From: Mycobacterium phage prophiT36-1
Length of the DNA stretch: 64,000 bases
Direction: 5' to 3' (one strand)
Sequence record: OQ417966.1
In this document: positions 4,842-21,084 of the stretch, piece after piece
Layout of the letters: the number at the start of each line of letters is the position of its first letter
Numbering within the stretch: the stretch's first letter is position 1
Position numbers and translations under genes: made by a program
The notes under the pieces: generated by a model
What the model was told of the DNA's origin: nothing
The model's database searches: none
What the model saw: only the letters and a program-made list of their open reading frames with translations

Positions 4842-4870
4842 GACCGCACCGCGAAAGGCATAGAGAAATC

Positions 4871-5182
4871 ATGGGATTCACCAACGCGACACCGCTGAAA
4901 CAGACCACCTACCAGGCCATGTACTTCGACGGCACACCGCAGAGCGCCGCGCAGACCTTGATGATGATCGACTCGCTGCTGACCGCCCGCAAGCTGCACT
5001 ACGGCATCATCCACGGTTCCCAAGAAGTAGAAAACCCCACCGCCTGGCGTATCCAACTCGCGCGCCGCGACGGCTCAGCCGAACTCATCGCCCTCGCCGA
5101 CCGCTGGATCGTCGTTTCCTCGACCGGCCAAATCCGCGTACTCACGCCCGCCGACTACCGCGCCGAATTCGCCGTTGAGTGA
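4871..5182 (+). CDS. hypothetical phage protein (tail region)
   Basis: 103-aa ORF with an ATG start, co-directional with the tail block. The next gene overlaps its stop (GTGA). Confidence 0.5.
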   Translation: MGFTNATPLKQTTYQAMYFDGTPQSAAQTLMMIDSLLTARKLHYGIIHGSQEVENPTAWRIQLARRDGSAELIALADRWIVVSSTGQIRVLTPADYRAEFAVE

Positions 5183-5442
5183 CCGGCGCCGGCACCGCTG
5201 CTCGCTACCCTGCCGCCATGGACGGATACCTGCGCGGTTCGGTGAAGACCCACCCGGACTATCCCGAGAACCCGACCATCGCGCTGCGCAGCGTGTTTGA
5301 CGACGACGACGCCACCGGCTGCAACTCGTGGCTGGTCGTCTCGGCGAGTTCTGGGGCGCTCTATCGCACGGAGTCGTTCGTCGCCGACTGGCCCGACGCA
5401 GACGGGCTGACGTTGACGACCACGCTCACCCCGGCTCCGTAA
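5179..5442 (+). CDS. hypothetical phage protein
   Basis: 87-aa ORF with a GTG start overlapping the upstream stop. An alternative ATG lies at 5218. Confidence 0.4.
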   Translation: MTGAGTAARYPAAMDGYLRGSVKTHPDYPENPTIALRSVFDDDDATGCNSWLVVSASSGALYRTESFVADWPDADGLTLTTTLTPAP

Positions 5443-5452
5443 CCTCACGGTC

Positions 5453-6094
5453 GTGGCGATCACGGAGTACACCGAGCCGAACGTCTGCATCGGGGAGAAC
5501 CTCACCACCGATGCGGCCGGTCAGCTGCGGCTCCAACCGTGGGCGCTGGTACGCCCTGTGGTCGATATCCGGGCACTCTCGGGCGGTGACGGTTCGATCA
5601 TCGCGCCGCTGATCGCGCTGCCCGGCAAGCTGCTGATCGACCAGAAAGCGTCCTGGCGCAACGATTCCCCGCTGCCGCAGATGGTGCTGATCCGCGTTAC
5701 GCGCGGGCCGCGGTCATGGCTCACCTCGAACCCGAACGCTATCCAATTCCGCGACCGGTGGACTACTGCGATCGACACGGATGCCGCGATGCCGGTGACC
5801 ACCGGCATCTACAACTCCCAGTGCGGATCGGCCTGGGACTTGGGAACGAACAGCGTCGCGGAGCCCAACCCTGGACGACAGTGGCGATGGGCCGACGCCA
5901 ACAGCATGGACGAATGGGTGGGCCCGATCGATCCAGGAGCCACGCTCAACCTCTGGTACCGCTGCTATGTGTGGACCCCGCCGCCGTGGTCGAACAACGC
6001 GAACAAGAATCAGCCGCAGCACGAGGCCCGCGCGAACTGGACGCGCATTGAAATGCGGGCCTTCCCGCAGCAGGGAAATGTGGTGACCGGATGA
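5453..6094 (+). CDS. hypothetical tail-associated protein
   Basis: 213-aa ORF with a GTG start. Its stop overlaps the next start (ATGA at 6091). Confidence 0.55.
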   Translation: MAITEYTEPNVCIGENLTTDAAGQLRLQPWALVRPVVDIRALSGGDGSIIAPLIALPGKLLIDQKASWRNDSPLPQMVLIRVTRGPRSWLTSNPNAIQFRDRWTTAIDTDAAMPVTTGIYNSQCGSAWDLGTNSVAEPNPGRQWRWADANSMDEWVGPIDPGATLNLWYRCYVWTPPPWSNNANKNQPQHEARANWTRIEMRAFPQQGNVVTG

Positions 6095-6690
6095 GCATCA
6101 AGGTGTGCACCTCGGAGTACATGCTCTCCACCGTCAACGGGCTCGACATGAGGCGAAACTGGTTCCCCAGCATCGTCGCTGAGCGATTCCTGCAGTCCAA
6201 GAAGGACGGGCAGATCAGCCGATCACCCGACCCGGTGACGATGATCGACGGTGATCTCACCTACTTCAACAACACCCCAGACCCGGTGTACATCACCGTG
6301 CAAGTCATCCGGGCTCCCCGCAGCATCGTTGCCCAAAACCCGGGCACCGTAGTGATTCACGACGCCTGGTCCTGGGCTGTCGGCAAGTCGCCCACAGCTG
6401 ACTTTCCCTCGGTAATCCAGGACTCATTCGGCGGCAGGGGACAGGTGGACCGACCCGAAAACGCCGCGGACAAGCTGCTGTTCGGACGGTTCTTCGCTGA
6501 CGGAGACAGCTCCCAAGCCTGGGTCAACGTCGGCCAACTCGACGCGCAGGATTCCCTGCACTTCCGATACCTGGCCGCTGTCCAAACCCCAGGCGTATGG
6601 ACCACCCCTTCAGAGTTCGAGCCGCGCTGGGAAGCACAAGCCCGCTGGACTCGACTGCTGGCGTTCGCGATGCCGATTGGTTCGGCATGA
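6091..6690 (+). CDS. hypothetical tail-associated protein
   Basis: 199-aa ORF. Coupled ATGA overlaps with neighbours on both sides. Confidence 0.55.
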   Translation: MSIKVCTSEYMLSTVNGLDMRRNWFPSIVAERFLQSKKDGQISRSPDPVTMIDGDLTYFNNTPDPVYITVQVIRAPRSIVAQNPGTVVIHDAWSWAVGKSPTADFPSVIQDSFGGRGQVDRPENAADKLLFGRFFADGDSSQAWVNVGQLDAQDSLHFRYLAAVQTPGVWTTPSEFEPRWEAQARWTRLLAFAMPIGSA

Positions 6691-7967
6691 GCGAGCACTT
6701 CGGGATCGTCGGCGACGCCATAGCTCCGCTGCCCTGGATGCAGATGCGCCACCTCAAAGGCGCCGAAGTGCCTTCGGTGTCAAAGTCTTACGACACATCA
6801 GGTGGCGGCAACAAGAACGACGCAGTCCACGCTGTCGTGGTGTCCTGGACGAACAACACACCGATTCCGCAATCGGTCTACGGCATGGTGACCCGGGAGG
6901 GCGCCCAGGTGACGCTGCAGGCACGGTCCCGCGGCTACCTGCTCACCCTCCACGGCCGCGATATCACCGCAACCGCGGCGGTGCCGACATCGTGGGACAT
7001 GGCCGAGGTCAGCAAGTTCGGTATCGGCGGCGACATCGGTAAGGGCGGAATCCTGGCTCTCGGCACCGGATTCGGGGTCAGCGAGATCCGGCAGAACTCC
7101 GCCAGCATCCCGTTGATGCCGCACTGGACCGGCTGGAGCATCGTGGCACCCGGGCAGACGTTCCACGGCCGGGTGGAGGTGCGGTTCCGGACGGACTTCT
7201 GGGAGAACACCTCGATCGATGGCGGTGACCAAAACACCGAGTCGGGCTTCATCTCCGGCGGCACCCGACTGGATCTCTACGCCACCCCGGTCATCGGTGA
7301 GCCACCTGTCTTGTCGACCCCCACGGTTGTCGGGATAGAGCACTCGGTGAACAACACCTTCCACACCGACGTCGATGTGCCCGCGGGCACTGCCTTAGGC
7401 GACATGCTTATTGCGGTGGTATCCAACCAGTTCGGGCTCATCAGCGACATCAAGCCCGAGCAGACCGGCTGGACACAGGTCCACGCCCGCGACGGCGGCT
7501 GGGAAGACGCCCACATGAAGGTGTACGTACGGGCCGCCAAAGCCACCGAACCGGCCTCCTACACGTTCGGCAACGGCCTACTGGCTGAGTCCATCGCACA
7601 CCTGATCACCGTGCGCGGCGCCAACCAGCTGCTCGATGAGGGCTGGCAGTTCGCATCATCGCTACGCAAGAGATGGTGGGAACGCTACGACGGCCATATC
7701 TGCCCATCGATCGACCGCGCCGGACAACTGCTGCTGTTGGTGTCCTACATTCCGCACAACGCGCTCCAAACCACATTCACGCAGACCGTGCCGGCCGGGA
7801 CGACGGAACTGGAGAATGTGGACGGGAACCTGGCATGCAGCGCCGTGGCCGCGCTGCCGAACCCGCCGCGGCCGACAGGGGAGCGCACGTTCGTCGCATC
7901 AGAGGAACCGTCCTGGGCCGGCCGCTCCATCACGGCATCGATCCTGGTGCCCGGCAAGTTCCAGTAG
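6687..7967 (+). CDS. hypothetical minor tail protein
   Basis: Roughly 426-aa ORF. The ATG at 6687 overlaps the upstream TGA. The track ORF 6597-7967 is in the same frame with an upstream extension that is probably not used. Confidence 0.6.
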   Translation: MSEHFGIVGDAIAPLPWMQMRHLKGAEVPSVSKSYDTSGGGNKNDAVHAVVVSWTNNTPIPQSVYGMVTREGAQVTLQARSRGYLLTLHGRDITATAAVPTSWDMAEVSKFGIGGDIGKGGILALGTGFGVSEIRQNSASIPLMPHWTGWSIVAPGQTFHGRVEVRFRTDFWENTSIDGGDQNTESGFISGGTRLDLYATPVIGEPPVLSTPTVVGIEHSVNNTFHTDVDVPAGTALGDMLIAVVSNQFGLISDIKPEQTGWTQVHARDGGWEDAHMKVYVRAAKATEPASYTFGNGLLAESIAHLITVRGANQLLDEGWQFASSLRKRWWERYDGHICPSIDRAGQLLLLVSYIPHNALQTTFTQTVPAGTTELENVDGNLACSAVAALPNPPRPTGERTFVASEEPSWAGRSITASILVPGKFQ

Positions 7968-7986
7968 TTGCGCCTCGGAGGTTCAC

Positions 7987-8337
7987 ATGTACGACCCGCC
8001 AGACAGTTTCGACGACATGCTCGGTGACGCGGACCTCGTCCCGCAGACGGGCCCGTTCGTCCCGCTCGAAGTCCCCGGTGTCGGGGTCGTCAGGGCGCGC
8101 CGGCCGATGCCCAACGCCGTGCCGGTGCTGGCCATGTCGGTGAACGCCAAGATCGATGTTGTCGACAAGCAGGGCTACCTGACCTTGTTCCTGCAGAATC
8201 ACCTGGAATCCGGTGAGCACGAACGCATCTTGGTCACCATGATGGGCGGCGAACTGCCGGCCGACAGCATGGGCAGGGTTGCCCGCGCGATAGCGACATG
8301 GGGCACGGCCCGCCCTACCTTGCCGTCATCACGCTAA
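7987..8337 (+). CDS. hypothetical phage protein
   Basis: ATG at 7987 (MYDPPDSF...) lies 20 nt after the upstream stop. Same frame as the longer track ORF 7636-8337. Confidence 0.5.
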   Translation: MYDPPDSFDDMLGDADLVPQTGPFVPLEVPGVGVVRARRPMPNAVPVLAMSVNAKIDVVDKQGYLTLFLQNHLESGEHERILVTMMGGELPADSMGRVARAIATWGTARPTLPSSR

Positions 8338-8342
8338 GTGTG

Positions 8343-8669
8343 ATGGCGGCTACTCACTGGCGGGCGATTCGGACCCGGATGCGGGGCGACGGTATCGCTG
8401 ATCCGATGCGGCAGTTGCCGCACATGCACGCACTGATCGACGAAGCCGAGAAGGTGTGGCTGGAGGCCCTGCACACCGGCAACGAGGAAAAGGACAAGCA
8501 AGAGCGCGAGCAGCTGTTGGACCGGCTGTATGCGCCGACCACAGACGACGCCGAGACGCTGAACGGCGACGGATACCAAGCCAAACGCACGCCGCCGCCC
8601 GGGTTTGAAGATCCGGCCGAGGTCGAGGCCAACTTCGATGCGGTCGCGCGGGCTTTCGGCGGCCGGTAG
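8343..8669 (+). CDS. hypothetical phage protein
   Basis: ATG at 8343 lies just after the upstream TAA (8335-8337), in frame with track ORF 8298-8669. Confidence 0.45.
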   Translation: MAATHWRAIRTRMRGDGIADPMRQLPHMHALIDEAEKVWLEALHTGNEEKDKQEREQLLDRLYAPTTDDAETLNGDGYQAKRTPPPGFEDPAEVEANFDAVARAFGGR

Positions 8670-8698
8670 TTGCACGCCGCCGCCTTAGCCTGCCCGGC

Positions 8699-9112
8699 AT
8701 GGCGAAGGTGGTCCCGTATCTCGACACGTCGGCCCCGCGCGGCCAGCGCCTCGCACCGGAGATGCGTGAGGAGATAGCCGAAGCCGCGCCGTCGACCCTG
8801 AACGATGGCGCGGTCAAGACAGCGAAGCTGGCCGAAGGAGCAGTCACCGAACTGAAACTGGCTGCCGGAGCGGTTACTTCTCCCAAGATCGCGTCGAAGG
8901 GCGTCAAGGCCGTCAACATCGACGACGCTGCCGTTGGCACACCCCAGCTGGCCGCTGGTGCTGTCACCGCAGCCAAGGCCGGCGTCGGTGTTGTCACCGC
9001 CCACGACAGCGCAGGCAACGCCATCAAGCTCGACGCAGTGCCCATGACCTCGACCGACTACACAGCGCTGACGACCAAAGAACCCAACGTCCTCTACCTG
9101 CTGAGCGACTGA
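8699..9112 (+). CDS. minor tail protein with short GAVT-K repeats
   Basis: 137 aa with repeated (D/E)GAVT..K/AAGAVT motifs, as found in small mycobacteriophage minor tail proteins. Stop overlaps the next ATG (TGATG). Confidence 0.55.
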   Translation: MAKVVPYLDTSAPRGQRLAPEMREEIAEAAPSTLNDGAVKTAKLAEGAVTELKLAAGAVTSPKIASKGVKAVNIDDAAVGTPQLAAGAVTAAKAGVGVVTAHDSAGNAIKLDAVPMTSTDYTALTTKEPNVLYLLSD

Positions 9113-9810
9113 TGCCCGGTATCTACCTCGGCGGCACCGCTATCAAGGCAATGATGCTCGGCGAGAAGGCCATCACCCGGGCGTATCTCGGCGAAACCCT
9201 GGTGTGGTCAGCGAACCGAATCCGCGACGACTTCAACCGCGCTGACGGCGATCTCGGCGTCAACTGGGTGATCAGCCCCAGCATCGACGGCTATAAGCCC
9301 AGTGTGGTCGGCAATGTGTGCCGCCTCGGAGTGCCGGACGGGCTGCTCTCGCTGCAGCTGAACGGCGCTCACGCCCGCTACGTCGCCACGCTGGACCGCG
9401 ACGACGGCTATGTGGAGTTCCGCATCGGCAGCCAGGGTTCAGGGCCGAGCCTAACCGGTGACCTGTGTAGAACCACGATCCTGGGGCGCGGGTCCAACAA
9501 TGCTGTCACCGGTGGCGTTGGGGTGCAAATGGATTCATCGACGCTGCGGATCGTGCGGAGGGCCGGGGTGGACACTGTGGTCAAGACGATCGGCACATTC
9601 GGCGCTGGCGATGTCATCCGGCACAACTTCGTCGGGAACGTGCACACGTTCCGCCGCAACGGCAGCCTGCTCGAAGAGTGGAACGACGAGAACGCCACCG
9701 CCCCCAAGGGAACAGGGAACCGGTCGCTGATCATCTCCGTGCAGGGTTCCAAGGATCTTCTGGGGCCACGCAGGTTTGGCCCCGCGATCGACTACGTGGA
9801 GATGGGCTGA
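9112..9810 (+). CDS. hypothetical minor tail protein
   Basis: 232-aa ORF. ATGA/TGATG coupling on both sides. Confidence 0.55.
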   Translation: MPGIYLGGTAIKAMMLGEKAITRAYLGETLVWSANRIRDDFNRADGDLGVNWVISPSIDGYKPSVVGNVCRLGVPDGLLSLQLNGAHARYVATLDRDDGYVEFRIGSQGSGPSLTGDLCRTTILGRGSNNAVTGGVGVQMDSSTLRIVRRAGVDTVVKTIGTFGAGDVIRHNFVGNVHTFRRNGSLLEEWNDENATAPKGTGNRSLIISVQGSKDLLGPRRFGPAIDYVEMG

Positions 9811-10040
9811 TGTCGGCCAAGTCCTTCGCGCAGCTCGTCAAGTATCCGCTGTTCTACATCGCGCTGGCCGGGGTCTCGTTCCGGATTGGTTGGTGTGCAG
9901 CCCATTACGTCAGTGACCGCATGGACAACTTTGATCCAGATATCGGTAGGGGTTATGTTCTGTTGAGACGTTTGTCTTGGAGGTATGTCGATGAGCGATC
10001 GAGCGTATCGGGTTGTTTACGGAGCTTACGCTGGGCTTGA
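9810..10040 (+). CDS. small membrane protein whose 3' part is altered by the element insertion (junction at 9949)
   Basis: ATG at 9810 overlaps the upstream TGA. One hydrophobic helix (LFYIALAGVSFRIGW). The reading frame runs across the element boundary at 9949 into element sequence. The original continuation would be the unique sequence at 55485 onward. Confidence 0.4.
   Translation: MSAKSFAQLVKYPLFYIALAGVSFRIGWCAAHYVSDRMDNFDPDIGRGYVLLRRLSWRYVDERSSVSGCLRSLRWA
9949..9970. repeat. left-end motif of the element: GGGGTTATGTTCTGTTGAGACG
   Basis: Contains TTATG and TGTTGAGACG. Their reverse complements (CATAA, CGTCTCAACA) occur at the right end (32669-32710). The same holds at 32717-32738 versus 55437-55478 in copy 2. 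Confidence 0.5.
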
Positions 10041-11379
10041 CGCAGCCGAGGTGCAGTTTCCCGGTGTGACCCGATGCCTTCCATCTGTGGAGCAGCAGTT
10101 CGGGGATGGGTTTCCTGTGCTTGTTGATGCCGATGGTTTGCCGGTGGAGGAATCGTTGGCGTTTCTAGTATCGCGGGTAGGGGCATCGACCTCAACATTG
10201 GCGCAGTACGCACGCGCTTTGATGGGGTTTGTCGAATTCCTGGGCTACCGGGGGGACGCCCGGCTTTTAGATGCGGCGCCCCGTGACTTGACGGCGTACC
10301 GGTTGTACCGAACGAGGACGGGGGAATCTCCTGTCTCGGAATACTCGTTCCGGGTGGAAGCCTCGGCACTGCGACAGTTCTATGCGTGGGCAGTTGAGAC
10401 TGGCCTCCTGGAGCGCTCTCCTGTCAAGCAGTTGTCACGCAATGGCTGGGACAACCTTTCTACCAACAGAATGCGTCATTCTAAGATTCGTCATGTAGAT
10501 AAGTTTCTGTACGAAGCACTGCTGCGAGCGGCTGCTCAGGGCAGCGTGGATGCGGGCGTTCGGAGTGCTTCGCTACGGAATGTGGCTGCAATCAAGACAT
10601 TTGCAACGACTGGGCTTCGCCTTGGTGAGCTTGCGAGCCTTCTGACCTTCGATATTGATCATGCTGTCAGATTGCGCCGGGCGCTATCTGTGGAGATGGA
10701 GTCGATCACAAAGTACCGAGTCAACCGCAATGCGTTGATTCCGTTCTATGCCACAGACGCGATCCGGCGGTATCGAAAACTTGAGCGCCCTAACGTGGTG
10801 GTTCGGCATCAGCGCGCGTTGGGCAAACGTCTGGACAGTCTTTTTGTGATCAGCGATTTCAATGAATCCACTCGCCGTGTCTCCGGCCGGTGGCGAGGTC
10901 GACGGCACCAGTATCTGCTGCATTTGGTGCCTGTTGAGCTGCGGTTGAAGGCTGTTTCAGTTAATTCAAATGGCAGCGTGGAGCCGCTGTGTTTGTTCTT
11001 GAGCGATAGCCGAGGGCAAGGGATGACGAGGTCTGGGTGGGAAGGAGTGTTCTCCGAGGTCAGTGATCAGATGATGCGCCAGGATCCGACGGATGGGCGG
11101 ATCCGGAAGGTCACCCCGCATGATCTGCGGCATACGTTCGCTATCAATTATTTGAGGGCGGCCCATGGGGAACGGGCCAAAGTGCTCCAGGAGACACCGT
11201 TCAAGGATGGGCCGCCGCTGCGTGATCCGTTGATCGATCTTCAAGAGCTGTTGGGACATGCGACCGCAGCACAAACGATGCGTTACTTGAGGTATGTCGA
11301 GGACATCGACCGACTCATTGCGTCGGCTGTTCCCGGCCAGGGTGATGCGGGAGGGGGCGAGCATGCCCCGCAGAAATGA
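9985..11379 (+). CDS. tyrosine recombinase (phage-integrase family), first of trio (RitA-like)
   Basis: 464 aa. C-terminal catalytic signature HDLRHTFA ... LLGHATAAQTMRYLRY (H-x-x-R ... H ... Y). N-terminal SAM-like core-binding region. The GGAGG RBS spacing favours the second ATG at 9991. Confidence 0.85.
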   Translation: MSMSDRAYRVVYGAYAGLDAAEVQFPGVTRCLPSVEQQFGDGFPVLVDADGLPVEESLAFLVSRVGASTSTLAQYARALMGFVEFLGYRGDARLLDAAPRDLTAYRLYRTRTGESPVSEYSFRVEASALRQFYAWAVETGLLERSPVKQLSRNGWDNLSTNRMRHSKIRHVDKFLYEALLRAAAQGSVDAGVRSASLRNVAAIKTFATTGLRLGELASLLTFDIDHAVRLRRALSVEMESITKYRVNRNALIPFYATDAIRRYRKLERPNVVVRHQRALGKRLDSLFVISDFNESTRRVSGRWRGRRHQYLLHLVPVELRLKAVSVNSNGSVEPLCLFLSDSRGQGMTRSGWEGVFSEVSDQMMRQDPTDGRIRKVTPHDLRHTFAINYLRAAHGERAKVLQETPFKDGPPLRDPLIDLQELLGHATAAQTMRYLRYVEDIDRLIASAVPGQGDAGGGEHAPQK

Positions 11380-13267
11380 ACGCAAGGACCTCGACCGTGA
11401 GGGTGTTGACGTTGCGCGAGGCGCCGCCGAATCTCGGCCAGCTGCGGTGGGAGTTCGCAGGCTCGCTCAACCGGGCAGGCCCGGCATGCAGGGGACCGCA
11501 CAGATAGATCCCAGCTCATACCAATGCCGCCGTCTGGCGGCCCAGCTGGCCGACCAGTGGGTTGAGATGGCGGCTGGGCGTTCGCGCTCGGTGATCGCCG
11601 TTCACCGTCAGGCGCTTGATAATTTCCTGAAATATGTTGATAAGTTGCATGATTCAGATGTGAGCCTGGATCATGATCCCGCGGTAGTAATGGCGGTGTT
11701 TGATGCATGGGCCAAGGATCTGATTGCACTGTATGACGAAAATTCGATCATGCCGTACCGGATGTCGAACATCGTCCAGACACAGATGGCTGGTGCTGTT
11801 GTCGATGGGGTGATCACCGACGAGGTGTTGGCAGCATATGCGCGTGGGCCCGCGGTAGTCCCGAAACCGCGAGCACAACCGCTCGACGAGTTCAGTAAAG
11901 ACGAACTCAAGCGCATGGTGCTGGCTGCGCGCGCACATATACGAGCAGCTCGAAAGATCAGGGAATGGGCCACGAAAACTATCCGTGCGTACGAATCTGG
12001 GAAATTGACCCACGCGGATCAACGCTGTCTGGGCCACATGCTGCAGATGGCTACCCGAGGCGAGCGCATCGCCATACAACAGCCGTGGGATGCACATCCG
12101 GAGTCGCTGCGCGATCTCTTCCCCGACGAGGCCTGGTCGCTTTATCAGGCAACAGGCCTGAACGAGACGAAGAATTCAGTTGCCTTGTCCTGCTACCGCG
12201 CGACCCTCGCCCGGCCAATCGACCTGGTTCCTTATCGGGTATTGCTTATGGCAGGCACAGGCGTTGCAGTGGAAGAGATCTCGGCATTGACTGTGTCAGA
12301 TATCGAATGGCTCGAAGATGGCGTCAGAGTGCAGATGACCAAATCGCGAGCCCGGCGGTCAAAAGGACGGTACTTCCCAGGATCCGCTGAGCGCGGTGGC
12401 TGGGATGTTCCCGCGCTTTTGCAGTCGCTGCTGGATTTCACTGAACCGGTCCGCGCGATCGCAGGTGCACAGTTCCAGGACTGCCTGTGGCTATCGTTCA
12501 AGACAAAAAGACAGTCCCACAGTGAATCTGGTTGCGCCCCGGCTCCCGCAGACTTCGGAACCGCCAACTTGGCATCCTGGATCGATTCGGTCAAGACAGT
12601 CCACGACATGGGCGATATTTCCACCCCACATGACATGCGGCGGATACGTAAGACAAAGGTCGCCCAGCGTGCAATTGATCTGCGTGGCGCAATGGCCGAC
12701 ATCGCTGGCGATGACCACACCAGCAGAGTCTTCTTCCAGCATTACGGACAGACAACATCGCTGAAAGTGTATTCAGGATCGGTAATTTCGGGCTTCCAAA
12801 CCTCACTCGCTGAGGCAGTAAAGACAGGCTTCACTGCCTTCCTGGACAGACGTGCTGCGGTACCGGCGTCGATCTTGACCGAGGCGCTGCCCATCGAGCC
12901 CGCTCAGGCACACAGTCTGCGCTCCGGTGCTCACGACATGGGAGTTGTCGACTGCCAGAACCCGTTTAACTCGCCCTTTACCAAACAAGGCAAGTTATGT
13001 GGGTCCGCGCCCTTATCATGTCTGATGTGCGAGAACGCGGTTGTCTTCACCGACCATCTCCCCAACATCGTGGCGCTTATACAAGCAATGGACAACGCGA
13101 AGCGGTCACTGGCACCCGATGACTGGATTGCCACCTGGGGGCGGCAATACGCTGCGGCGCAGGCATTGATGTCATCGGTGCCCGAACGAGCTCGCGCCGC
13201 CGCGGCGCGCAAGGCCGCTGCCGCGGTAACAGATCTGCCGGCCTGGTTGGGGCCGGGTAACCAGTGA
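11363..13267 (+). CDS. tyrosine recombinase-like protein, second of trio (RitB-like; Arg-I position appears substituted)
   Basis: ATG at 11363 is preceded by a GGGAGGGGG RBS and overlaps the first gene's end by 17 nt. The track ORF 11294 start is internal to gene 1. Motifs: PHDMRRIRKT (HxxR) and DDHTSRVFFQHYGQTTSLKVY (H...Y). Confidence 0.65.
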   Translation: MPRRNERKDLDREGVDVARGAAESRPAAVGVRRLAQPGRPGMQGTAQIDPSSYQCRRLAAQLADQWVEMAAGRSRSVIAVHRQALDNFLKYVDKLHDSDVSLDHDPAVVMAVFDAWAKDLIALYDENSIMPYRMSNIVQTQMAGAVVDGVITDEVLAAYARGPAVVPKPRAQPLDEFSKDELKRMVLAARAHIRAARKIREWATKTIRAYESGKLTHADQRCLGHMLQMATRGERIAIQQPWDAHPESLRDLFPDEAWSLYQATGLNETKNSVALSCYRATLARPIDLVPYRVLLMAGTGVAVEEISALTVSDIEWLEDGVRVQMTKSRARRSKGRYFPGSAERGGWDVPALLQSLLDFTEPVRAIAGAQFQDCLWLSFKTKRQSHSESGCAPAPADFGTANLASWIDSVKTVHDMGDISTPHDMRRIRKTKVAQRAIDLRGAMADIAGDDHTSRVFFQHYGQTTSLKVYSGSVISGFQTSLAEAVKTGFTAFLDRRAAVPASILTEALPIEPAQAHSLRSGAHDMGVVDCQNPFNSPFTKQGKLCGSAPLSCLMCENAVVFTDHLPNIVALIQAMDNAKRSLAPDDWIATWGRQYAAAQALMSSVPERARAAAARKAAAAVTDLPAWLGPGNQ

Positions 13268-15750
13268 AGACAGCACAGCTCGGTTCCCCAGGGCCAGTCG
13301 CGGCACCGGTTTCGTCCGACATCTTCGCCGACACCGAAGATGTATTCCTGTCCCGCCCGGACAGGATCGCTGGCGCCCCCGCATGCCTGTTTAGCGAGCA
13401 GGTATGGGATGCGACGGGTGTGCTGCCTCGGCGCGCTAACATCGGCCGCCATCAATTGCGCATAATCTTTCCGCAGCATCCGGCGTGGTCGCTGCGGTCT
13501 CGTGAGATTGCGATGACCTTGCTTAACAGCACCGACCCACGGTTGCTCGCACGATCGGTCTCCTTCGGCAGCCGTACGTTCTCCCTGGCGCATGTGCGAT
13601 CGCGCTGCGAGACATACAAAACCGTGGCGGCGTGGCAGACAGCTCAAGGCTTACCTGACGACATTTCGGCCTGGGGCGCCCGCGACTGGGTAGCGATGGT
13701 CGAAGCCGAAATCGCCAGGGGCGTCAAAAACGGGACCGTGCGCAATCTCATCTGCGCTATCCGCGACCTTGTCTTCCTTGGGCCCATCTTGACTGGCGGC
13801 GGCATCGCATCAGACCCATGGAACGGCAAGGCAACGAAACTCATCGCCAAAGGCGCCGTGGCAGGACGAACTGAAGTAATCGCCCCGGCACGTTGGATAC
13901 CGCTGATAGGTGCGTGCTGGACATACATCGACACCTTCGCCGAAGACATCCTGAGTCTGCGTGTGAGCCATCAGTGTGACCTGCGCCCCGGCATGCCGGA
14001 ATGGAGGCGCCGCTCGGAAGTAAGCGATGACGAGCTGCTCACCGCATACCTGGAGTCCTCCGGTGCCGTTATTCCCGCTAAGACTCGTGACGGTGGCCCG
14101 GACCCGAGCTGGTGGCGCCTATCCAAATTGGTAACCGCCGACCGGTCTTCGGCAATCTTCAAAGAAGACAGGGCAGCGGGGCGCCGCCGCAGAGAGATGG
14201 TGTATCAGGCGCTCGCCAACAACGTGGCCCGTTATGTAGCCCTCACTGCCAGTGAATTCGAAAATCTTTTGGCACAAGGGATTTCCAAGAAACTCGCGGG
14301 CAGCGATGCCGAGACCATAGTACGGATCCAGGGCGCCGACGAGATGCTCGATGCGTGGATTGACGCTGCCAGCAACCGAGTCGCAGTCACGTCCACAGAA
14401 CTATGCAGCTCGCCGGGAAAGATCGCTGAAGACGACATCAATTGGGCATTGATGGAACGGATCGTGTTCCGTTCAGAAGGCGTGACTGGCCTGCTCGGGA
14501 AGGGCTGGGCAACCTCTGTCCGCCGCAGGCGCAAACTACTTAAACTCGCCCGCTCAGGCCGAGTTTTCGCATCCGCCAGTGGTGTCGGTGTGATGGGCGT
14601 ACCGCGCGACTGCACTGGCTTCACCCTAGTCGGCGCACCAGGCAGGCAGATCCCTTGGCGGGAATCAATGTCGGACTATGAGGCGCGGTGCGAACTGCGC
14701 GCCTTGCGGGCATCCTGCTATGTCTTCATCGCCGCGATAACAATGATGCGCGACAGTGAGATTCAAGATATGAAGCGAGGCTGTATACGTACCGATTACG
14801 GCGTCGCTTCTGTGAAATCACACCTTTACAAGGGGCGTTCGGGCAAGACGGTCGCACACTGGTGGATCATCGATGAAGTAGCCACAGCAATCAGAGTGCT
14901 GGAACGACTCAGCTGTCATCCAGAGTATCTGTTCGCACGATTCGTCGACGGAGAACTCGAGAATCCTGAACCCGGTATCAGGTCAGGACTCGAGATTGCG
15001 TTTCTGCTCGATCATTTGGCGGCCACCGGCGCCCGAAGCGGGATCGCACCGGTGCCCGAGGGGCCCGTGATTTCCGCGCGAGCTCTGCGCCGTACCACTG
15101 CATCCATCAGCCGCGAACTGGGAGGCAACGAGCTTGCGGTAAGTCATCAACTCAAACACGCCATCAACTACGGCTACTCGAACGTTACCAGCGCCTATAT
15201 GGCACCAGACCCGGCATGGGCAGACCTGCTCAACACCAACAGGTCCGAGGACAACCTTGAGCACATGGTGACCGTCGTGCAGCAGTCCGCGCGCACCAGC
15301 GCCTCCTTGGCCGGTCGCGGCGGTGAGCGGCTGACCCAACAGATTGCCCAAGCGGTCGAACAGAGCGCAGGCCCTGGATACCCCGGTTCGGTGCTCTCCG
15401 ATGAGGAGCTAGCCATCCTGCTGAGAAAAATCGCGCCGCAGATCCGTTTCGGACCTGCCAACGCGTGTCTGTACGACGAAGAGAACGCGCTATGTCGGCG
15501 CGATGCCACCACCGAAATCCAGGGGCCGCTTCTGGGACTGTGTCAACCGTCGCGCTGCGCAAACTCGGTGATCGGTACCGAACACATGCCTGTGTGGGTC
15601 ACCGAGTTGCAGACATTGCAGAAGACCATCGCCAGCCCCCGCGTGAGTCCGCCTCGACGACAGGCACTTTCAGAACGAATCACCGACGTACAGCACGTAC
15701 TGAGCCAGCTCCAAACACGACCGCAAGCGGGCGACCATGGGCAGCCGTGA
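13264..15750 (+). CDS. large tyrosine recombinase-like protein, third of trio (RitC-like, 828 aa)
   Basis: GTGA/ATGA overlap with gene 2. Box I-like MMRDSEIQDM, then ALRR and SHQLKHAINYGYSNVTSAYM (R...H...Y). Unusually long N-terminal region. Confidence 0.6.
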   Translation: MKTAQLGSPGPVAAPVSSDIFADTEDVFLSRPDRIAGAPACLFSEQVWDATGVLPRRANIGRHQLRIIFPQHPAWSLRSREIAMTLLNSTDPRLLARSVSFGSRTFSLAHVRSRCETYKTVAAWQTAQGLPDDISAWGARDWVAMVEAEIARGVKNGTVRNLICAIRDLVFLGPILTGGGIASDPWNGKATKLIAKGAVAGRTEVIAPARWIPLIGACWTYIDTFAEDILSLRVSHQCDLRPGMPEWRRRSEVSDDELLTAYLESSGAVIPAKTRDGGPDPSWWRLSKLVTADRSSAIFKEDRAAGRRRREMVYQALANNVARYVALTASEFENLLAQGISKKLAGSDAETIVRIQGADEMLDAWIDAASNRVAVTSTELCSSPGKIAEDDINWALMERIVFRSEGVTGLLGKGWATSVRRRRKLLKLARSGRVFASASGVGVMGVPRDCTGFTLVGAPGRQIPWRESMSDYEARCELRALRASCYVFIAAITMMRDSEIQDMKRGCIRTDYGVASVKSHLYKGRSGKTVAHWWIIDEVATAIRVLERLSCHPEYLFARFVDGELENPEPGIRSGLEIAFLLDHLAATGARSGIAPVPEGPVISARALRRTTASISRELGGNELAVSHQLKHAINYGYSNVTSAYMAPDPAWADLLNTNRSEDNLEHMVTVVQQSARTSASLAGRGGERLTQQIAQAVEQSAGPGYPGSVLSDEELAILLRKIAPQIRFGPANACLYDEENALCRRDATTEIQGPLLGLCQPSRCANSVIGTEHMPVWVTELQTLQKTIASPRVSPPRRQALSERITDVQHVLSQLQTRPQAGDHGQP

Positions 15751-16135
15751 GGAAATCCGTGCCGCGATGGAACGCCTCCTAAACGGCGACGCCCAGCACA
15801 CCGACGGACGCCTAACCAAAACCAACCTTGCGGTAGAAGCCGGCGTGGGTCGGGCGACCCTCTACCGCCAGCACGACCTGATGGCCGAATGGGCGCGCCG
15901 CGTCACCGAATCAGACATCGCCCCACCCGCCGCGTCTGCCGCGGCCACGATCGCACACCTGACCCGACAGCTGGCCGACGAACGCTCCCGCCGCCGCGAA
16001 TCCGACCGCATCGCCAACGGCCTGGCCTTCGTGGTAGCCGAGCTCTACCGCGCGCTAGAGGCTCGGACTCCCCCAAATTCTTCACGCGGCACGATCATCC
16101 CGATAAACGCCAAAACGCGAAGGCGCGCAGACTAG
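15737..16135 (+). CDS. small HTH DNA-binding protein (TetR/IS3-OrfA-like helix-turn-helix)
   Basis: ATG overlaps the end of gene 3 by 14 nt. TNLAVEAGVGRATLYRQH is a classic HTH. Arg/Glu-rich helical C-terminus. Confidence 0.5.
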   Translation: MGSREEIRAAMERLLNGDAQHTDGRLTKTNLAVEAGVGRATLYRQHDLMAEWARRVTESDIAPPAASAAATIAHLTRQLADERSRRRESDRIANGLAFVVAELYRALEARTPPNSSRGTIIPINAKTRRRAD

Positions 16136-16196
16136 CCTGAGCCCATTTCACATACGAGCGAATGAGTTCATTGCTGATCGAAGCAGTACGGGATTC

Positions 16197-19100
16197 GTGC
16201 GTGGGAGCGGTGCCCGCCATGAATGGACAGCGCCGGCATCTGATCGGGACCGTTCGAGCGCGACTTACGTGGGGAGAGGTTACGTGGCCGACAGCCAGGC
16301 ACTTCGGAAAGTTCGGTATGCAGACAAGTTCCGGGGCTATCAGGGCCAGGCTATTGCTATGGCCCGGAAGTATCGGCGCAGCTTCCACGACGAGGACGGC
16401 GCGCAGGGGCTTGATGCCGCATTGGTTTACCACCCCACGGGTACGGGCAAGACAGCCGTCATTGCCGGTCTAACGCACGCGGCACACGAAATCGGCAATG
16501 TCCTGGTGCTGACCACACGCGAAGTCATACGTGATCAACTGGTGCGCGAGCTCAGCGGTGGCCTCTTCATTGACGAGAACAAGTTCGCGCTGCCCATGCG
16601 CCACAAACTTTCTAAGGTCTGCTTCGCGGTGGCCGAGTCCCGCCAATTACTCGGCACAGCATTAGCGTTGCATGCGGCGACGCGAAAACGCATCCCCGAC
16701 CAGGTGGTCCGGGAGTTCAGTCAGCGGCAGTTCGAGCGGCTTGCACCCGAGCCCGACATCGACATCGTGAGCCACTTGCATGAACAGAACTCTGTTCTCA
16801 TTCTCACCGTCCAAATGCTGGCCCGCTTGCACCGAGGCCGCACCGGGCAGTCACCGATATACGACGTCTTGCGTCAACACGTAGACCTGGTCGTCTTCGA
16901 CGAAGGACACTACGAACCTGCACCGCGCTACAGCGAGGCAGTGCGGGATCTAGGGCGCCCTACTGTGCTGTTGACCGCTACCCCTTTCCGTAACGACCTG
17001 AAAGCTTTTCGCATCACACCCGAGCATGTCGACATTTATCGATTCACCCAGGCGGTGCAGCAGCAGCACATCAGAGAAGTCCAGATCGTGCAGCGCACAC
17101 CGACACGTGACCCGGACAAGTTCTGCGCCGATGTTCTCGATTTCTGCACATCGGTGTGGGGACCCGATCCAGGGCAGTGGACCCGCCGGATCATTATTCG
17201 CTGCGACGATGTCGAGTGCGTAACACGCCTTGGCGAAGCATTCATAGCCCATGGCTTCAAGGACCGAGTCATCGGCATCCATGACCGCTACACCAACCCT
17301 GGGCAAGGCGACGGGCAGCCATGGCAATACCGCACAGTCCCAGCGCCGTCGGAAACCCAAGCACTAGTATGGATTCACCAGCATAAACTGCTAGAGGGCG
17401 TCGATGATCATCGCTTCCAGATTCTGGCTTTCTTCAACCCACCGACCAATGTGCGCGCCATTGTCCAACAAATCGGCCGAGTCGTAAGGACCAAGCCTGG
17501 TGGCCAAGACGCAGGCAACGCATACGTTTTGGACTATTTCGCCGGGCGCATCGCTAGATACTGGAGTCTATATCGCGGGTATGACGCTGCAGCCACGCCC
17601 GAGGCAGTCACTATGACCGCATCACGGTTCTACCTCACGAGATTCACCGCTGCACTGCCGCAGTTCGATTACATCGACCAAAAGTTTCGCCAGCGGCTCG
17701 ATCTGTTCGACCACGACCAGCAAGCCCAGCTCACTGACACCATCGCCGACGAGATCTTCTTCAAGCGCACTGTGGCACTTAGACAGATACCAAACACCCT
17801 GACGATCCAGGACGTTGTCCCGCTTCTCGAGATCGCCCTTAAGGAAGGCGATTACGAGTACCAGCGATTCGATGTGTCGAAGATATGCCCCAATACCGCT
17901 CTATTCCTGTGTTCCCGGGTGAACAATGTCGACTTTCTCAACACTTACTTCTTCCCCGAGCCGCACCTAGAAGCCCGGCTCGTGATGCTCTTCCCAGAAC
18001 ACGCACTGCTGGCCTCGACAAGTACAGCAGGCGCATCGGTCAAAGATGGACTAGGGATTCTTGCGCGGTACGATCCGACCCGACTTGAGCGACTCCTATT
18101 GCCGGGCAACGATAACCGGGGACGCATCACCAGCGTTTCCTCTAAGAACATGAACCTCAGTAGCCGGGCAGTGCGCGGTCGGGTCGTCTACGCAGCATCC
18201 ATGGCTGACATCCCGGCAGCCCTCGATGAGCACGGCCATGTCGTCTCCACGGTCACCGGCTACAACGGCTCGGCTCCACAGGTCATAGACCACCTCGAAT
18301 ACCAAGTAAGTGTGTTGGCCGATGAACTTGCCAGATCAGGGGCGACCACCGAAGGGCCTGGCACTGGTGCAACCCTTGTGCGCCGTTACGTGGGCATCGC
18401 AAGCGGTCACGTGACTGAGTACCTTCCACCACTGCGCATCAAGGCATTCCGTACTTGGGTGCAATCACTGGCGAACCAGATGGATGACCCCGCACGCTAT
18501 GACCGAGTCTTTAGTCGCTACGCCGAGCTCGCGGTAGGCGAGACGGTCTCGGGCGCAGCCCAGAACCTGCTATTGGACTTCACCGAGCTCACCGAGCTCT
18601 ACCGGCACCGCCTCACCGGCCAATGCGTTATCAGCGATGATGTGTGCGCCGACAGATTAGGCGATCCATACGGTACACCCGAACAGCCTGCGGCACAGTT
18701 CATCATGACGATAAATGACACCCCATACACAATAGCCGCCACCTTCAACACCTCGTCCAAGCGGTACCGCATCGAGTGCCCGGCGCTCGACTATGACTTC
18801 ATCCCGATCGATGACCGCGACGGCTCGTTGATACGTGCGATAAACCAGATGCAGGCTTTCACGGTGGTCCCAGAGGACCGAGATCGCATCTACGCGCACG
18901 GGAGCTTCTATGCGCCGTCCCTGAAGTTCGGGCCAGACCGATTTAACCCCAACGGTTTCCCTATCGGACACCTGCTTTACCCCTCGCAACAGTTCAAGTC
19001 TAAAGAGACAGAAAAAGGGGATAAAGTCATTGGCGGCAACCGTTACCAGACACACAGCCTGTTCGGCCTGATCGACAGCTGGAAGTCAGGTTTCGATACC

Positions 19101-19682
19101 GCAGAACTCGATCTCGACCCTCACTGGGTGCGGCGCAGTGGCTATGTCCCTGAATCGCTCTCGTTTTCACCCACTGCGCTCATCGTGGACGACATGGGTT
19201 GCGAATGCGCCGATTTTATTATTGCCGACACGCTCGGGCGGCGGGTTGTGCTGATTCATGGCAAGGCATCCGAGACGTGGCGCCCGTATTCGGCCTCAGC
19301 TCTGCAGGAGATCTGTGCGCAGGCTCAAAAGAACACAGCGCTGTTCTCCTCGCGTGAGCCCCGCATGCCGCCAAACATCACCTTGTGGGACAAGGCACAC
19401 AACTTCAACAACCTGTCGGTAGCTAAACGAATCCGGAAGCCGAACAGAGATACGGCGGAGAGGATTTGGCACGACCAACTGGCGCCGCTGTTAGCCAACC
19501 CACTCACTTCGCGCGAGATCTGGCTGGTGCTTGGCAACATGCTGTCGGCCTCAGAGATCATCGCGCAACTAAAGACTGACCGGCCTGCCGCCGAAGTCCT
19601 ACAGCTAACGCAACTACTGCACACCACAATGGAAGCCGCACGCGGCGTAGCAGCAAATCTGCGAATCTTCTGTTCGCCATAG
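16197..19682 (+). CDS. SF2 (DEAH/ResIII-like) helicase fused to a roughly 700-aa uncharacterised C-terminal region
   Basis: Motif I HPTGTGKT, motif II VVFDEGHY, motif III LLTATPFRN, motif VI QQIGRVVRT. The C-terminal 700 aa have no obvious motif except a possible nuclease-like segment ALIVDDMGCECADFIIAD..VVLIHGK. GTG start at 16197. An alternative ATG at 16359 is in frame. Confidence 0.75.
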   Translation: MRGSGARHEWTAPASDRDRSSATYVGRGYVADSQALRKVRYADKFRGYQGQAIAMARKYRRSFHDEDGAQGLDAALVYHPTGTGKTAVIAGLTHAAHEIGNVLVLTTREVIRDQLVRELSGGLFIDENKFALPMRHKLSKVCFAVAESRQLLGTALALHAATRKRIPDQVVREFSQRQFERLAPEPDIDIVSHLHEQNSVLILTVQMLARLHRGRTGQSPIYDVLRQHVDLVVFDEGHYEPAPRYSEAVRDLGRPTVLLTATPFRNDLKAFRITPEHVDIYRFTQAVQQQHIREVQIVQRTPTRDPDKFCADVLDFCTSVWGPDPGQWTRRIIIRCDDVECVTRLGEAFIAHGFKDRVIGIHDRYTNPGQGDGQPWQYRTVPAPSETQALVWIHQHKLLEGVDDHRFQILAFFNPPTNVRAIVQQIGRVVRTKPGGQDAGNAYVLDYFAGRIARYWSLYRGYDAAATPEAVTMTASRFYLTRFTAALPQFDYIDQKFRQRLDLFDHDQQAQLTDTIADEIFFKRTVALRQIPNTLTIQDVVPLLEIALKEGDYEYQRFDVSKICPNTALFLCSRVNNVDFLNTYFFPEPHLEARLVMLFPEHALLASTSTAGASVKDGLGILARYDPTRLERLLLPGNDNRGRITSVSSKNMNLSSRAVRGRVVYAASMADIPAALDEHGHVVSTVTGYNGSAPQVIDHLEYQVSVLADELARSGATTEGPGTGATLVRRYVGIASGHVTEYLPPLRIKAFRTWVQSLANQMDDPARYDRVFSRYAELAVGETVSGAAQNLLLDFTELTELYRHRLTGQCVISDDVCADRLGDPYGTPEQPAAQFIMTINDTPYTIAATFNTSSKRYRIECPALDYDFIPIDDRDGSLIRAINQMQAFTVVPEDRDRIYAHGSFYAPSLKFGPDRFNPNGFPIGHLLYPSQQFKSKETEKGDKVIGGNRYQTHSLFGLIDSWKSGFDTAELDLDPHWVRRSGYVPESLSFSPTALIVDDMGCECADFIIADTLGRRVVLIHGKASETWRPYSASALQEICAQAQKNTALFSSREPRMPPNITLWDKAHNFNNLSVAKRIRKPNRDTAERIWHDQLAPLLANPLTSREIWLVLGNMLSASEIIAQLKTDRPAAEVLQLTQLLHTTMEAARGVAANLRIFCSP

Positions 19683-19718
19683 TTGTTGCTACAGAGTATA
19701 AATCAAGATCTGCCGGAC

Positions 19719-19976
19719 TCAGTGGTCGGCGAAGAAGTCGCCCGCTGAAGCATCCAACGCCTCCGCAATGTCGACGAGGCGTTCATACAGAAGTCCCCGG
19801 CGGCCGTGCTCGACGTCAATGAGTACGTTGCGAGTCACACCCGACGCCAACGCGAGCGCCTCTTGAGTCAGGCCCCGCGCAAGACGCAACGCGCGGATGC
19901 GGGCGCCGACCGCCTGCCGAGTATGTTCCCAGGCAATCACACGCTCGGGATCGTTCTGCTGAGGGCGGGTAGGCAT
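19719..19976 (-). CDS. XRE-family (Cro/CI-type) HTH transcriptional regulator
   Basis: 85 aa. LRLARGLTQEALALASGVTRNVLIDVEHGRR is a canonical XRE HTH. Divergent from the downstream plus-strand genes. Confidence 0.75.
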   Translation of the reverse strand: MPTRPQQNDPERVIAWEHTRQAVGARIRALRLARGLTQEALALASGVTRNVLIDVEHGRRGLLYERLVDIAEALDASAGDFFADH

Positions 19977-19986
19977 TAACCCAGTT

Positions 19987-20727
19987 ATGGAGCGCCCGTA
20001 CCAAAAGTCTGCCCTACTAGTAGTACATTGCTGTGTTGTGTTTGAATTCGATCCCGAAGATGCGTCTGTAGAGACTGTTTCGGCACTGGCCCTGGATGCG
20101 ATGGACGAGCTGCGCAGGAAGTTGATCGAATGCCTTCTGGTGTTGCAAACGTTGTCTGATGAAGCTGATCTGAATTTCGTCGATCTAATTAGCGATCTGC
20201 AGGCCGTTCACCGAGGTACTCAAGAGGCGTATCGAGCAGCTAGTCTGGTGCATCAGGGTGCTCAGCTAGACGGCCGATGGGGTAACAGTTTGTCCAAGCC
20301 CAAAGCCGTTTTCGCTCGCCATAATTCAGCAGTGCGTCGCGGCGCCAAAAAGGTAATCCCGATGTCGGCACCATCTGACCTGGTGGAGCAGAGTTTGTAT
20401 CACTTGCCCAAGCCCGACCGCGTTCAAGCAACCGTGGGTGACCGGCCCCAATGCGCGGGCACCGTTCGTTCCACAGGTGAAAGCTGTGCCAGCTCCGCCA
20501 TGTATCTGGGTTCGGGAGCATTTGCAGCGCACTGTTATTCGCACGCTACTCCCGCTGAACGTGAGCGGTACAGGGTCTATCACAAGGAGATTGATGCGCG
20601 ACGTGCGCGCACATATGACGATTTGCGCGAGCGTCAGTGGGCGGTCGGTCGCGAGATTCTCGCTCACTGGATCTCTAGTCGCGAACATGGCATCGAGTGG
20701 CTTGAGAAAGCTATCGCTGAAGTTTAG
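19987..20727 (+). CDS. hypothetical protein with Cys/His cluster (CAGTVRSTGESC...HCYSH)
   Basis: 246-aa ORF with an ATG start, divergent from the XRE gene. Possible zinc-binding cluster. No recognisable catalytic motif. Confidence 0.5.
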   Translation: MERPYQKSALLVVHCCVVFEFDPEDASVETVSALALDAMDELRRKLIECLLVLQTLSDEADLNFVDLISDLQAVHRGTQEAYRAASLVHQGAQLDGRWGNSLSKPKAVFARHNSAVRRGAKKVIPMSAPSDLVEQSLYHLPKPDRVQATVGDRPQCAGTVRSTGESCASSAMYLGSGAFAAHCYSHATPAERERYRVYHKEIDARRARTYDDLRERQWAVGREILAHWISSREHGIEWLEKAIAEV

Positions 20728-21084
20728 AAGCGCAGGGCGTTTTACTGCTCCTTCACGAGCGCACGGGCAGGAGTCACAACGATTCCGTCAGCCAATCGGA
20801 CCGCGAGTGGGCTACGCCACGTAGAGCGAAGATCATTTACACAGATTGGGCATCTAAGTCTTTGCCCTGCGATGAAATGCTCGTTGTTTCGGACGACGCG
20901 CACCCATGACGGAAGCTGCCGACAGGATGCCTACCCTTGGCCGAACGAAACATTGAGGCAGTCCTGCAAGCGCAGCGAGGACGGTCGGCGGGCCTCCAGT
21001 GTGCGGGCAGGACATCACGGTGATCTTGCGGGCTGTTGGGCTGGCCCGCTCTGCCTCGACGGCCCGTAAGGGCACGTAATTCGT

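Follow-up and report, generated by a model that had tools for sequence, protein, structure and literature searches.

The DNA analyzed here, a window of 64,000 nt from sequence record OQ417966.1, belongs to the Mycobacterium abscessus prophage prophiT36-1, and holds at positions 9985-16135 four co-oriented open reading frames (ORFs), here named A, B, C and D, that overlap one another by 17 nt (A/B), 4 nt (B/C) and 14 nt (C/D). An earlier note, made from the letters of this DNA alone, had described three overlapping recombinase ORFs of 464, about 634 and 828 aa, with overlaps of 17 and 4 nt, followed by a small helix-turn-helix (HTH) gene that overlaps the third of them, and the ORF coordinates agree with this description throughout. 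The four genes form the first 6.2 kb, and thus the left end, of a 22.8-kb mobile element that is real and recently active. Apart from integrative and conjugative elements (ICE) and integrative and mobilizable elements (IME), the element types that carry several recombinases comprise SE (short for strand-biased circularizing integrative elements), the genomic islands with three integrases (GInt), the recombinase-in-trio elements (RIT) and Tn554 (PMC10214605), and it is against these that the element has to be placed.

Gene A (9985-11379, plus strand) encodes an ordinary-size, IntA-like tyrosine recombinase of 464 aa with a SAM-like core-binding domain; its start has been called elsewhere at 9991, giving 462 aa. 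The protein matches PF00589 (9.4e-12) and PF02899 (3.5e-8), and the residues R212, H379-x-x-R382, H425 and Y434 are invariant in an alignment with 36 relatives (36/36). Gene C (13264-15750, plus strand), which begins with GTG, encodes a large, IntB-like tyrosine recombinase of 828 aa, in which an extension of about 450 aa at the N-terminus precedes the catalytic domain and a C-terminal four-cysteine domain, and its residues R496, K523, R609, H632 and Y645 are each conserved in at least 35 of 36 relatives. The third protein had been read earlier as carrying ALRR in place of HxxR, and the first residue of that motif is indeed an arginine, R606 (RALRRT), at a position occupied by His in 30 of 36 relatives; this is a clade-specific His-to-Arg change and the motif is retained.

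Between them lies gene B (11363-13267, plus strand), which encodes a Tfp-like protein of 634 aa with a C-terminal four-cysteine domain; the full ORF extends from 11294 to 13267, or 657 aa, and independent gene calls start at 11363. The position corresponding to the box-I Arg is occupied by A, T, S, N or E in all 38 sequences aligned and never by Arg, as had been suspected for the second protein, while K327, H452 and Y461 are kept in 38/38. The catalytic signatures that the earlier note saw in all three proteins are thus complete in A and C, where the residues hold on alignment, and partial in B, which lacks Arg-I and keeps Lys, His and Tyr. B has a predicted tyrosine-recombinase fold, and may be catalytic given the three residues that it retains. 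Searches of NCBIfam and Pfam with B and C returned only sub-threshold matches to PF00589, and a PDB sequence search with the same two proteins gave no useful match. Both proteins carry a four-cysteine motif of the form C..P...P....C...P..C..C.N (at about 531-556 in B and about 735-765 in C), followed by a helical tail; the motif is also aligned in the IntB protein of SE, and the region is probably a zinc-binding domain. Gene D (15737-16135, plus strand) encodes a small Srap/TnpC-like protein of 132 aa with an N-terminal HTH and a helical tail; a weak HTH_7 match covers residues 24-44, and the N-terminal motif LT..NL..EAGV.R.T.YR is kept in 78 plasmid records.

The composition profile of the window has a periodicity of about 22.8 kb, and direct comparison resolves this into a unit of 22,768 bp present twice, head-to-tail, such that positions 9949-32718 are base-for-base the same as 32717-55486. 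The pair therefore spans 9949-55486, an insert of 45.5 kb, and the 22.8-kb unit outlined earlier is one period of two perfect tandem copies. The termini of the unit are inverted, TTATGT on the left and ACATAA on the right, with a strictly terminal inverted repeat of 6-7 bp (9/11 if extended). The inverted motifs that had been seen at the far end proved to lie at both ends of each copy: the 10-mer TGTTGAGACG is confined to the copy ends, once per end and inverted, with four matches in the window against 0.22 expected. It is subterminal, set back from the tips by 8 nt on the left and 33 nt on the right, so that the left terminus of copy 1 (9953-9970, plus strand) reads TTATGT and then, 2 nt inward, TGTTGAGACG, and the right terminus of copy 1 (32669-32711, plus strand) reads CGTCTCAACA ... 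TTGACG ... ACATAA. Long inverted repeats were looked for and not found. Copy 2 (32721-55479, plus strand) is identical to copy 1, with A at 32753-34147, B at 34131-36035, C at 36032-38518, D at 38505-38903 and cargo to 55153.

These dimensions bear on the proposal of the earlier note that the genes are a RIT-type module (ritABC) that has acquired cargo. Three adjacent recombinase-fold genes with overlaps of 4-17 nt do recall RIT elements, whose genes overlap by 4-8 bp. As described, however, RIT proteins are 315-410 aa long and all catalytic (PMC10214605), as against 464, 634 and 828 aa here and a B protein devoid of Arg-I in 38/38, and RIT elements are compact, with 34-bp terminal inverted repeats and no cargo (PMC10214605), as against a unit of 22.8 kb with 16.6 kb of cargo and repeats of 6-7 bp; nor do they possess a fourth gene, where D is conserved. 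RIT identity is accordingly rejected on architecture as known from descriptions, that is, on protein size, catalytic completeness, terminal repeats, gene number and cargo, and the chance that it is right is vanishingly small.

The setting of the element within the prophage defines its ends. The window flanks, 1-9948 and 55487-64000, are 100% identical to prophiT48-1 (OQ417964.1), the left one to positions 46793-56740 of that record, and in prophiT48-1 the two flanks are only 5 bp apart, making it the empty site. That site, GATATCGG-TAGGGG-GAAGTACGG, lies within prophage gene 81, between the last minor tail gene and gene 82 with the lysin A cassette. In prophiT36-1 the element breaks gene 81, which encodes a 52-aa hypothetical protein in prophiT48-1, into a 5' part (9810-9952, plus strand), whose last 6 bp are the target hexamer TAGGGG retained at the left junction (9947-9952), and a 3' remainder (55486-55501, plus strand), after which come gene 82 and the lysin A/lysin B cassette. 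The idea that a recombinase module mobilizes a large cargo is supported by these ends, which the empty site sets exactly. According to the prophiT48-1 annotation, the right arm of the prophage (55487-64000) encodes lysins A and B, a lipoprotein and a polymorphic toxin that contains a WXG100 motif, and the end of the window coincides exactly with the end of the prophage record.

The insertion has been noticed before. Amarh et al. 2023 (PMC9934374) identify this DNA as prophiT36-1, of 110,792 bp, with a 'peculiar, large insertion' made up of a 22.5-kb direct duplication that encodes three integrase-like genes, a helicase, an AAA ATPase and a sigma/TnsA-like gene; the insertion was left unclassified and its mode of movement undefined. 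The same study reports that T36, T38 and T48 are close relatives, with prophages identical except for the T36 insert, and that the complete tandem is present a second time, in the T36 chromosome, where it lies between T36_00429 and T36_00464. Because these prophages are identical apart from the insert, the prophage insertion is probably recent. That the genes might instead belong to the prophage itself, as phage integrases or a satellite, or that the tandem might be an assembly artifact, is suggested by the position of the element inside a prophage and by the 100% identity of its two copies. Yet the element is wholly absent from closely related prophages, its usual home is a chromosomal gene, phage structural and packaging domains are lacking from its nine largest cargo ORFs, no relative was found in 2.9 million viral contigs or in a phage collection, and the T36 genome was sequenced to completion with the tandem at two loci (PMC9934374), which together leave this explanation highly improbable.

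The chromosomal home is apparent from other M. abscessus assemblies. A 104-kb contig of another M. abscessus sample encodes exactly the same C protein within an element that differs by 2 mismatches over 15,801 bp and begins at the same TTATGT, next to a different flank, and in an assembly collection the exact B protein occurs in 515 blocks and the cargo toxin in 333. Sixteen insertion places, drawn from the 48 longest contigs read, all show the element inside a gene for a T2SSE-family ATPase (16/16), adjoined by an Rv3660c_N gene and tad genes. In 10 assemblies the left chromosomal junction, attL, is GGCACGGG-CGCGGG-TTATGT, and the right junction, attR, is ACATAA-CGCGGG-CAAGACCACG, the latter flank beginning CAAGACC. 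When the flanks are joined through a single CGCGGG, the result is an unbroken ATPase ORF of 386 aa that carries the Walker-A motif VTGGTGAGKTTLL, and the target corresponds to the Walker-A codons (GGTGAGKTT; GGC GGC ACG GGC GCG GGC AAG ACC ACG) of a tadA/CpaF-like ATPase gene. To judge from these places, the Walker-A codons are the primary site and the prophage is a rare secondary site; since every other copy examined lies in the tadA-like gene, the prophage copy represents a recent secondary-site insertion. Flanking homology of a kind that would suggest an origin of the prophage copy by homologous recombination was not seen. Because the primary target is its Walker-A coding sequence, a pilus-assembly ATPase gene is split in hundreds of assemblies. 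Some genomes, represented by four loci, hold a shorter ATPase fragment followed by another island (ApeA-HEPN, HTH, DUF3892, Peptidase_M78) and then by a second SAM_1 plus Phage_integrase gene of 401-433 aa, at about 13870-21188 of these loci, an arrangement that may represent a second related element at an ATPase-gene hotspot.

The junctions of the prophage copy can be read against the chromosomal ones. The left prophage junction is GATATCGG-TAGGGG-TTATGTTCTGTTGAGACG, and the right is CGTCTCAACATGTCTGTAGAGACAGCTTGACGTCCGTACATAA-CGCGGG-GAAGTACGG, in which the hexamer CGCGGG (55480-55485) is the same as that which flanks both sides of the element at the chromosomal site. No target duplication other than the common G run is found at the junctions. 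The two outer junctions fit a spacer of 6 nt, whereas the inner junction between the copies, ACATAA-CGCGGGGGG-TTATGT, places 9 nt between the terminal motifs (32712-32720), or 3 G more than predicted. Paths to this 9-nt junction through one or two conservative exchanges at a 6-bp core were tried, and no simple one works; a second insertion offset by 3 bp would fit. The inner site is probably inactive, and as a 9-nt spacer would probably disable it, this would explain a dimer that is stable and has moved as one unit.

Gene A has no more than 32-38 bp of element DNA in front of it, and at both sites the interrupted gene runs in the same direction as the operon, so the A-B-C-D operon may be transcribed from outside the element, or else from a promoter formed when the ends are joined. 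Within the stretch 32695-32726 (also 55463-55479 plus 9953-9958 if joined), the right end contributes a TTGACG, and with a 6-bp core the joined ends, read by eye, give TTGACG-N17-TTATGT or TTGACG-N18-TATGTT (TANNNT) as a possible junction promoter. A sigma-70 scan of the joined ends found no promoter.

Relatives of the module place these observations in a wider context, and answer the earlier suggestion that the same genes be sought elsewhere. When one genome from each species was scanned with the C alignment, 48 loci emerged, 47 of them in Actinomycetota (Streptomyces, Amycolatopsis, Kitasatospora, Mycobacterium, Tomitella, Prauserella and Kutzneria) and the exception in a Phycisphaerales metagenome bin. 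In about 40 of the 48, A, B, C and D stand in order at fixed spacing, which supports the proposal that the small HTH gene is a fourth component of the system. The four genes are also found on plasmids of M. lentiflavum, M. adipatum, Gordonia, Serratia, Sinorhizobium and Gemmobacter, with cargoes that vary, a mer operon following on the Sinorhizobium plasmid and restriction-modification genes on the Gordonia plasmid; the Serratia plasmid module is not listed in the SE and GInt supplementary tables. An exhaustive profile search with B gathered cluster representatives numbering 1,259 at E <= 1e-3, or 153 if the limit is set at 1e-30, of which those with a name are called 'hypothetical protein', and with their middle gene usually annotated in this way A-B-C-D elements are easily missed. 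A scan of 2.9 million viral contigs for relatives of C found none, and a megablast of the whole element against phage and plasmid collections gave no match.

In actinobacterial relatives the left-end motif TTATG/GTTAKGT plus TGTCTCA recurs 5' of gene A, while alphaproteobacterial elements begin with TTATCT and split ardC-like genes. A-B-C without D is found on Mesorhizobium and Novosphingobium plasmids, and the elements of pNL1 (2637-8232) and Mesorhizobium (about 1580-7330) are compact A-B-C forms, without D or cargo, with the left terminus TTATCTKGACAGTCTGCACCG; both are inserted in genes for ardC-like zincin metallopeptidases, directly after the ...EE(I/L)VA codons. On two unrelated alphaproteobacterial plasmids, pairs of short and long tyrosine-recombinase genes in opposite orientation (minus strand, at 1-1328 of the Mesorhizobium locus and 1-1396 of the other) abut the left end of the module, so a Tn554-like element may have inserted in a nested or end-targeted manner. 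Identity of the A-B-C-D region with its flanks exceeds 99.6% across four Amycolatopsis species and Prauserella muralis, and because this identity spans the entire 19.5 kb common to the longest loci, flanks included, no element boundary appears from these five loci; the identity suggests that the module belongs to a larger plasmid or island which has spread very recently.

Of the known element types, SE offers the closest parallel. SEs carry the operon intA-tfp-intB-srap (Nonaka 2018/2022; Idola et al. 2023, PMC10214605) and have been reported only in Gammaproteobacteria, whereas the host of the present element belongs to Actinomycetota and relatives occur in Alphaproteobacteria. As in SE, four overlapping, co-oriented genes at the left end encode in turn an ordinary recombinase, an Arg-less protein of recombinase fold, a large complete recombinase and a small HTH protein, with the cargo located downstream, selectivity for the insertion site, and no gene for conjugation or mobilization seen among the nine largest cargo ORFs. 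Pairwise BLASTP of A-D against the GInt proteins of E. coli Sakai and two SEs (pAQU1 and pBT2436) returned almost nothing, the SE comparison yielding only a weak match between D and Srap and none for B. Profile comparison by hhalign of actinobacterial and proteobacterial-subfamily profiles with the same two SEs was more revealing, in that the best match of each of A-D is the SE protein in the same operon position. A matches IntA at 96.5% (E 9e-10) with the actinobacterial and 92% with the proteobacterial-subfamily profile, and D matches Srap at 96.9% (E 1.6e-10) and 27%, respectively; C matches IntB at 51.7% (E 1.5e-4) and 94.6% (E 7e-8), and B has Tfp as its top match in both, at 31.9% (E 4.9e-4) and 11.8%. 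Srap being regarded as the counterpart of TnpC (Idola et al. 2023, PMC10214605), the homology of D with Srap makes the likening of D to TnpC in the earlier note a reasonable one. Catalytic residues are in register in the SE alignments, B and Tfp both lack Arg-I and both have a TK.RA motif, and a B-family hidden Markov model built from 131 sequences scores both SE Tfp proteins at 23.7 bits, the top non-family matches among 31 candidates, the next recombinase reaching 13.9 bits.

Under the rule described for SE and Tn554, the 6 bp of the target stay at attL, and 6 bp of the left flank of the donor are carried to attR (PMC10214605); the hexamers TAGGGG and CGCGGG are compatible with such a 6-bp footprint. 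Genes A-D are likely to form the module for recombination of an SE-like mobile island of M. abscessus, 22.8 kb long, integrative and non-conjugative. SE proper is delimited by PSI-BLAST-detectable ortholog clusters of Tfp and Srap, and A-D fall outside these; because the homology is seen only at profile level, the family is a distant sister of SE rather than part of the published clusters.

Several points weigh against an SE-like assignment. The likeness of B to Tfp and of C to IntB is weak, with E about 2 on a whole-database scale and hhalign probabilities of 12-52% for some profile pairs, and the case consequently rests on collinearity together with the strong matches of A and D. In SE, IntA and IntB carry the RHRY catalytic motif and Tfp is reported to be without any of it, whereas B keeps Lys, His and Tyr. 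SE termini are imperfect inverted repeats of 13-19 bp (motifs C and C') with a 6-bp spacer when joined, whereas the M. abscessus element has a terminal repeat of 6-7 bp and a 10-bp subterminal repeat at unequal distances from its tips. The three extra G at the inner junction are not predicted by simple conservative exchange, and fixed ends GGGTTATGT...ACATAACGC, with a crossover in the common GGG and no duplication, explain the junctions equally well. For SE, copy-out behavior, a nicked circle and strand bias have been described, whereas the M. abscessus element is known here from sequence alone. Finally, Tn554 and RIT proteins were set apart through published descriptions, and GInt through a single sequence set.

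Van Houdt et al. 2012 (PMC3414803) described 'Tn554-related' actinobacterial transposons that encode two recombinases, one short and the other abnormally long (611-828 aa), together with a TnpC-like protein, with the middle gene unrecognized, and stated, as data not shown, that these families resemble Tn554 TnpA and TnpB. The M. abscessus element could accordingly be an expanded relative of Tn554 and not an SE. C is homologous to the long recombinase of pNL1 (tblastn E 3e-20), one of the examples in that study, A, B and C follow one another in the same order in the pNL1 element, where B bears the annotation hypothetical, and the upper size bound of 828 aa equals the length of C; because pNL1 both matches C and has this order, part of the class of Van Houdt et al. 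is the same family as the element analyzed here. Tn554 itself, an element of Staphylococcus, likewise combines an ordinary and a very long tyrosine recombinase with a TnpC-like protein, target specificity and a 6-bp junction core, and shares the 6-bp footprint and a dependence on TnpC. It has only three genes, however (tnpA, tnpB and a tnpC of about 125 aa), with no counterpart of B or Tfp, and B is present in all syntenic relatives. The comparison with Tn554 was made by description, and because the literature has yet to settle how SE, GInt and Tn554 are related, the Tn554-related and SE labels are less rivals than partly overlapping names. The Tn554-related placement is, on balance, unlikely, though it deserves to be taken seriously.

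A third comparison is with the sister group of SE, the GInts (ginABCD; Bardaji et al. 2017). GInts possess three integrase-like genes and a gene for a small protein, co-oriented at one end of an element with variable cargo and site-specific insertion, and this layout of a 5' four-gene operon, cargo and a short 3' end is shared by the M. abscessus element and common to SE. All four GInt genes are required for recombination, restriction or defense cargo is frequent, and the E. coli GinD protein has 132 aa, equal to D. In GInt, however, the Arg-less protein is the third, GinC, and GinB is complete, whereas here it is the second that lacks Arg-I and the third that is complete, and GInts are flanked by imperfect direct repeats of 10-17 nt, whereas the two flanks here have no more than a 6-bp hexamer or a G run in common. 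The GInt sequence set consisted only of E. coli Sakai ECs_3509-3512, and against Sakai GinB, GinC and GinD no profile of A-D was significant: actinobacterial profiles reached at most 1.8% (C with GinC 0.3%, D with GinD 1.1%) and proteobacterial-subfamily profiles at most 12.7% (C with GinC, E 0.0023; D with GinD 0.1%). The match of A to GinA, at 23.5% (actinobacterial) and 59.7% (proteobacterial subfamily), is at the level of a generic recombinase. That the element is a GInt is therefore improbable. Judged by organization and profiles, the element is a new, distant actinobacterial member of the SE/Tn554/GInt kind, closest to SE, whereas descriptions of such elements have until now come chiefly from Gram-negative bacteria and staphylococci.

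How such an element would move can be sketched from these parallels. In SE, recombination of attL with attR produces a nicked double-stranded circle and leaves no empty site, a copy-out process. In the M. abscessus element, A and C would perform the cleavage and rejoining of DNA at a 6-bp core next to TTATGT/ACATAA, while B, non-catalytic or partly catalytic, would have an architectural role in the synaptic complex and D would act as a DNA-binding accessory or directionality factor, by analogy with Srap and TnpC in SE and Tn554. The element would leave as a circle with joined ends and enter sites that resemble GG-nnnGGG-nAAG. The CGCGGG at the right prophage junction would then be the chromosomal core, carried along as the 6-bp footprint of SE and Tn554, and the two copies would have moved as one dimer.

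The cargo of each copy amounts to about 16.6 kb (16136-32711 in copy 1), with its ORFs within 16197-32385. Those with recognizable products encode a ResIII/SNF2 helicase with a PDC-S71-like C-terminus (16197/16284-19682, plus strand), an XRE-type HTH protein (19719-19976, minus strand), an OLD-family AAA plus TOPRIM nuclease (23228-25033, plus), an amidohydrolase (25594-26247, plus), an unusual fusion of Sigma70_r4 with a TnsA-like endonuclease (27325-28929, plus) and an Ntox33 toxin (29326-30513, plus) with its DUF4279 neighbor (30503-30913, plus); several other ORFs have no assigned function. Pfam and PADLOC scans of the nine largest cargo ORFs found no conjugation, relaxase, phage structural or packaging domains. 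The cargo is probably a small defense island, its nuclease, helicase and toxin set serving phage defense or competition.

What had been a 'peculiar' insertion in prophiT36-1 (Amarh et al. 2023) is now a defined mobile element with ends, a primary target and a secondary insertion, and with it the host range of the SE-type four-gene module widens, in the form of distant but collinear relatives, from Gammaproteobacteria to Actinomycetota and alphaproteobacterial plasmids, on elements whose cargo includes mercury resistance, restriction-modification and defense genes. A bolder proposal, rather doubtful at present, is that SE, GInt, Tn554 and the A-B-C-D elements of Actinomycetota and Alphaproteobacteria constitute one ancient superfamily that moves by strand-biased copy-out/copy-in. 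If so, the M. abscessus element would represent this superfamily as a naturally active member, in a Gram-positive-type host of clinical importance, in which a 'locked' dimer moved as one 45.5-kb unit into a prophage late operon, and the element, as a carrier of nuclease and toxin genes, would be either a passenger of the phage or the cause of its crippling. The natural pair of donor and target sites, together with the dimer, could serve as a system in which to study how several tyrosine recombinases cooperate. For phage therapy of M. abscessus, the finding concerns a 45.5-kb insert between the tail and lysis genes of a prophage, and an island with nuclease and toxin cargo.

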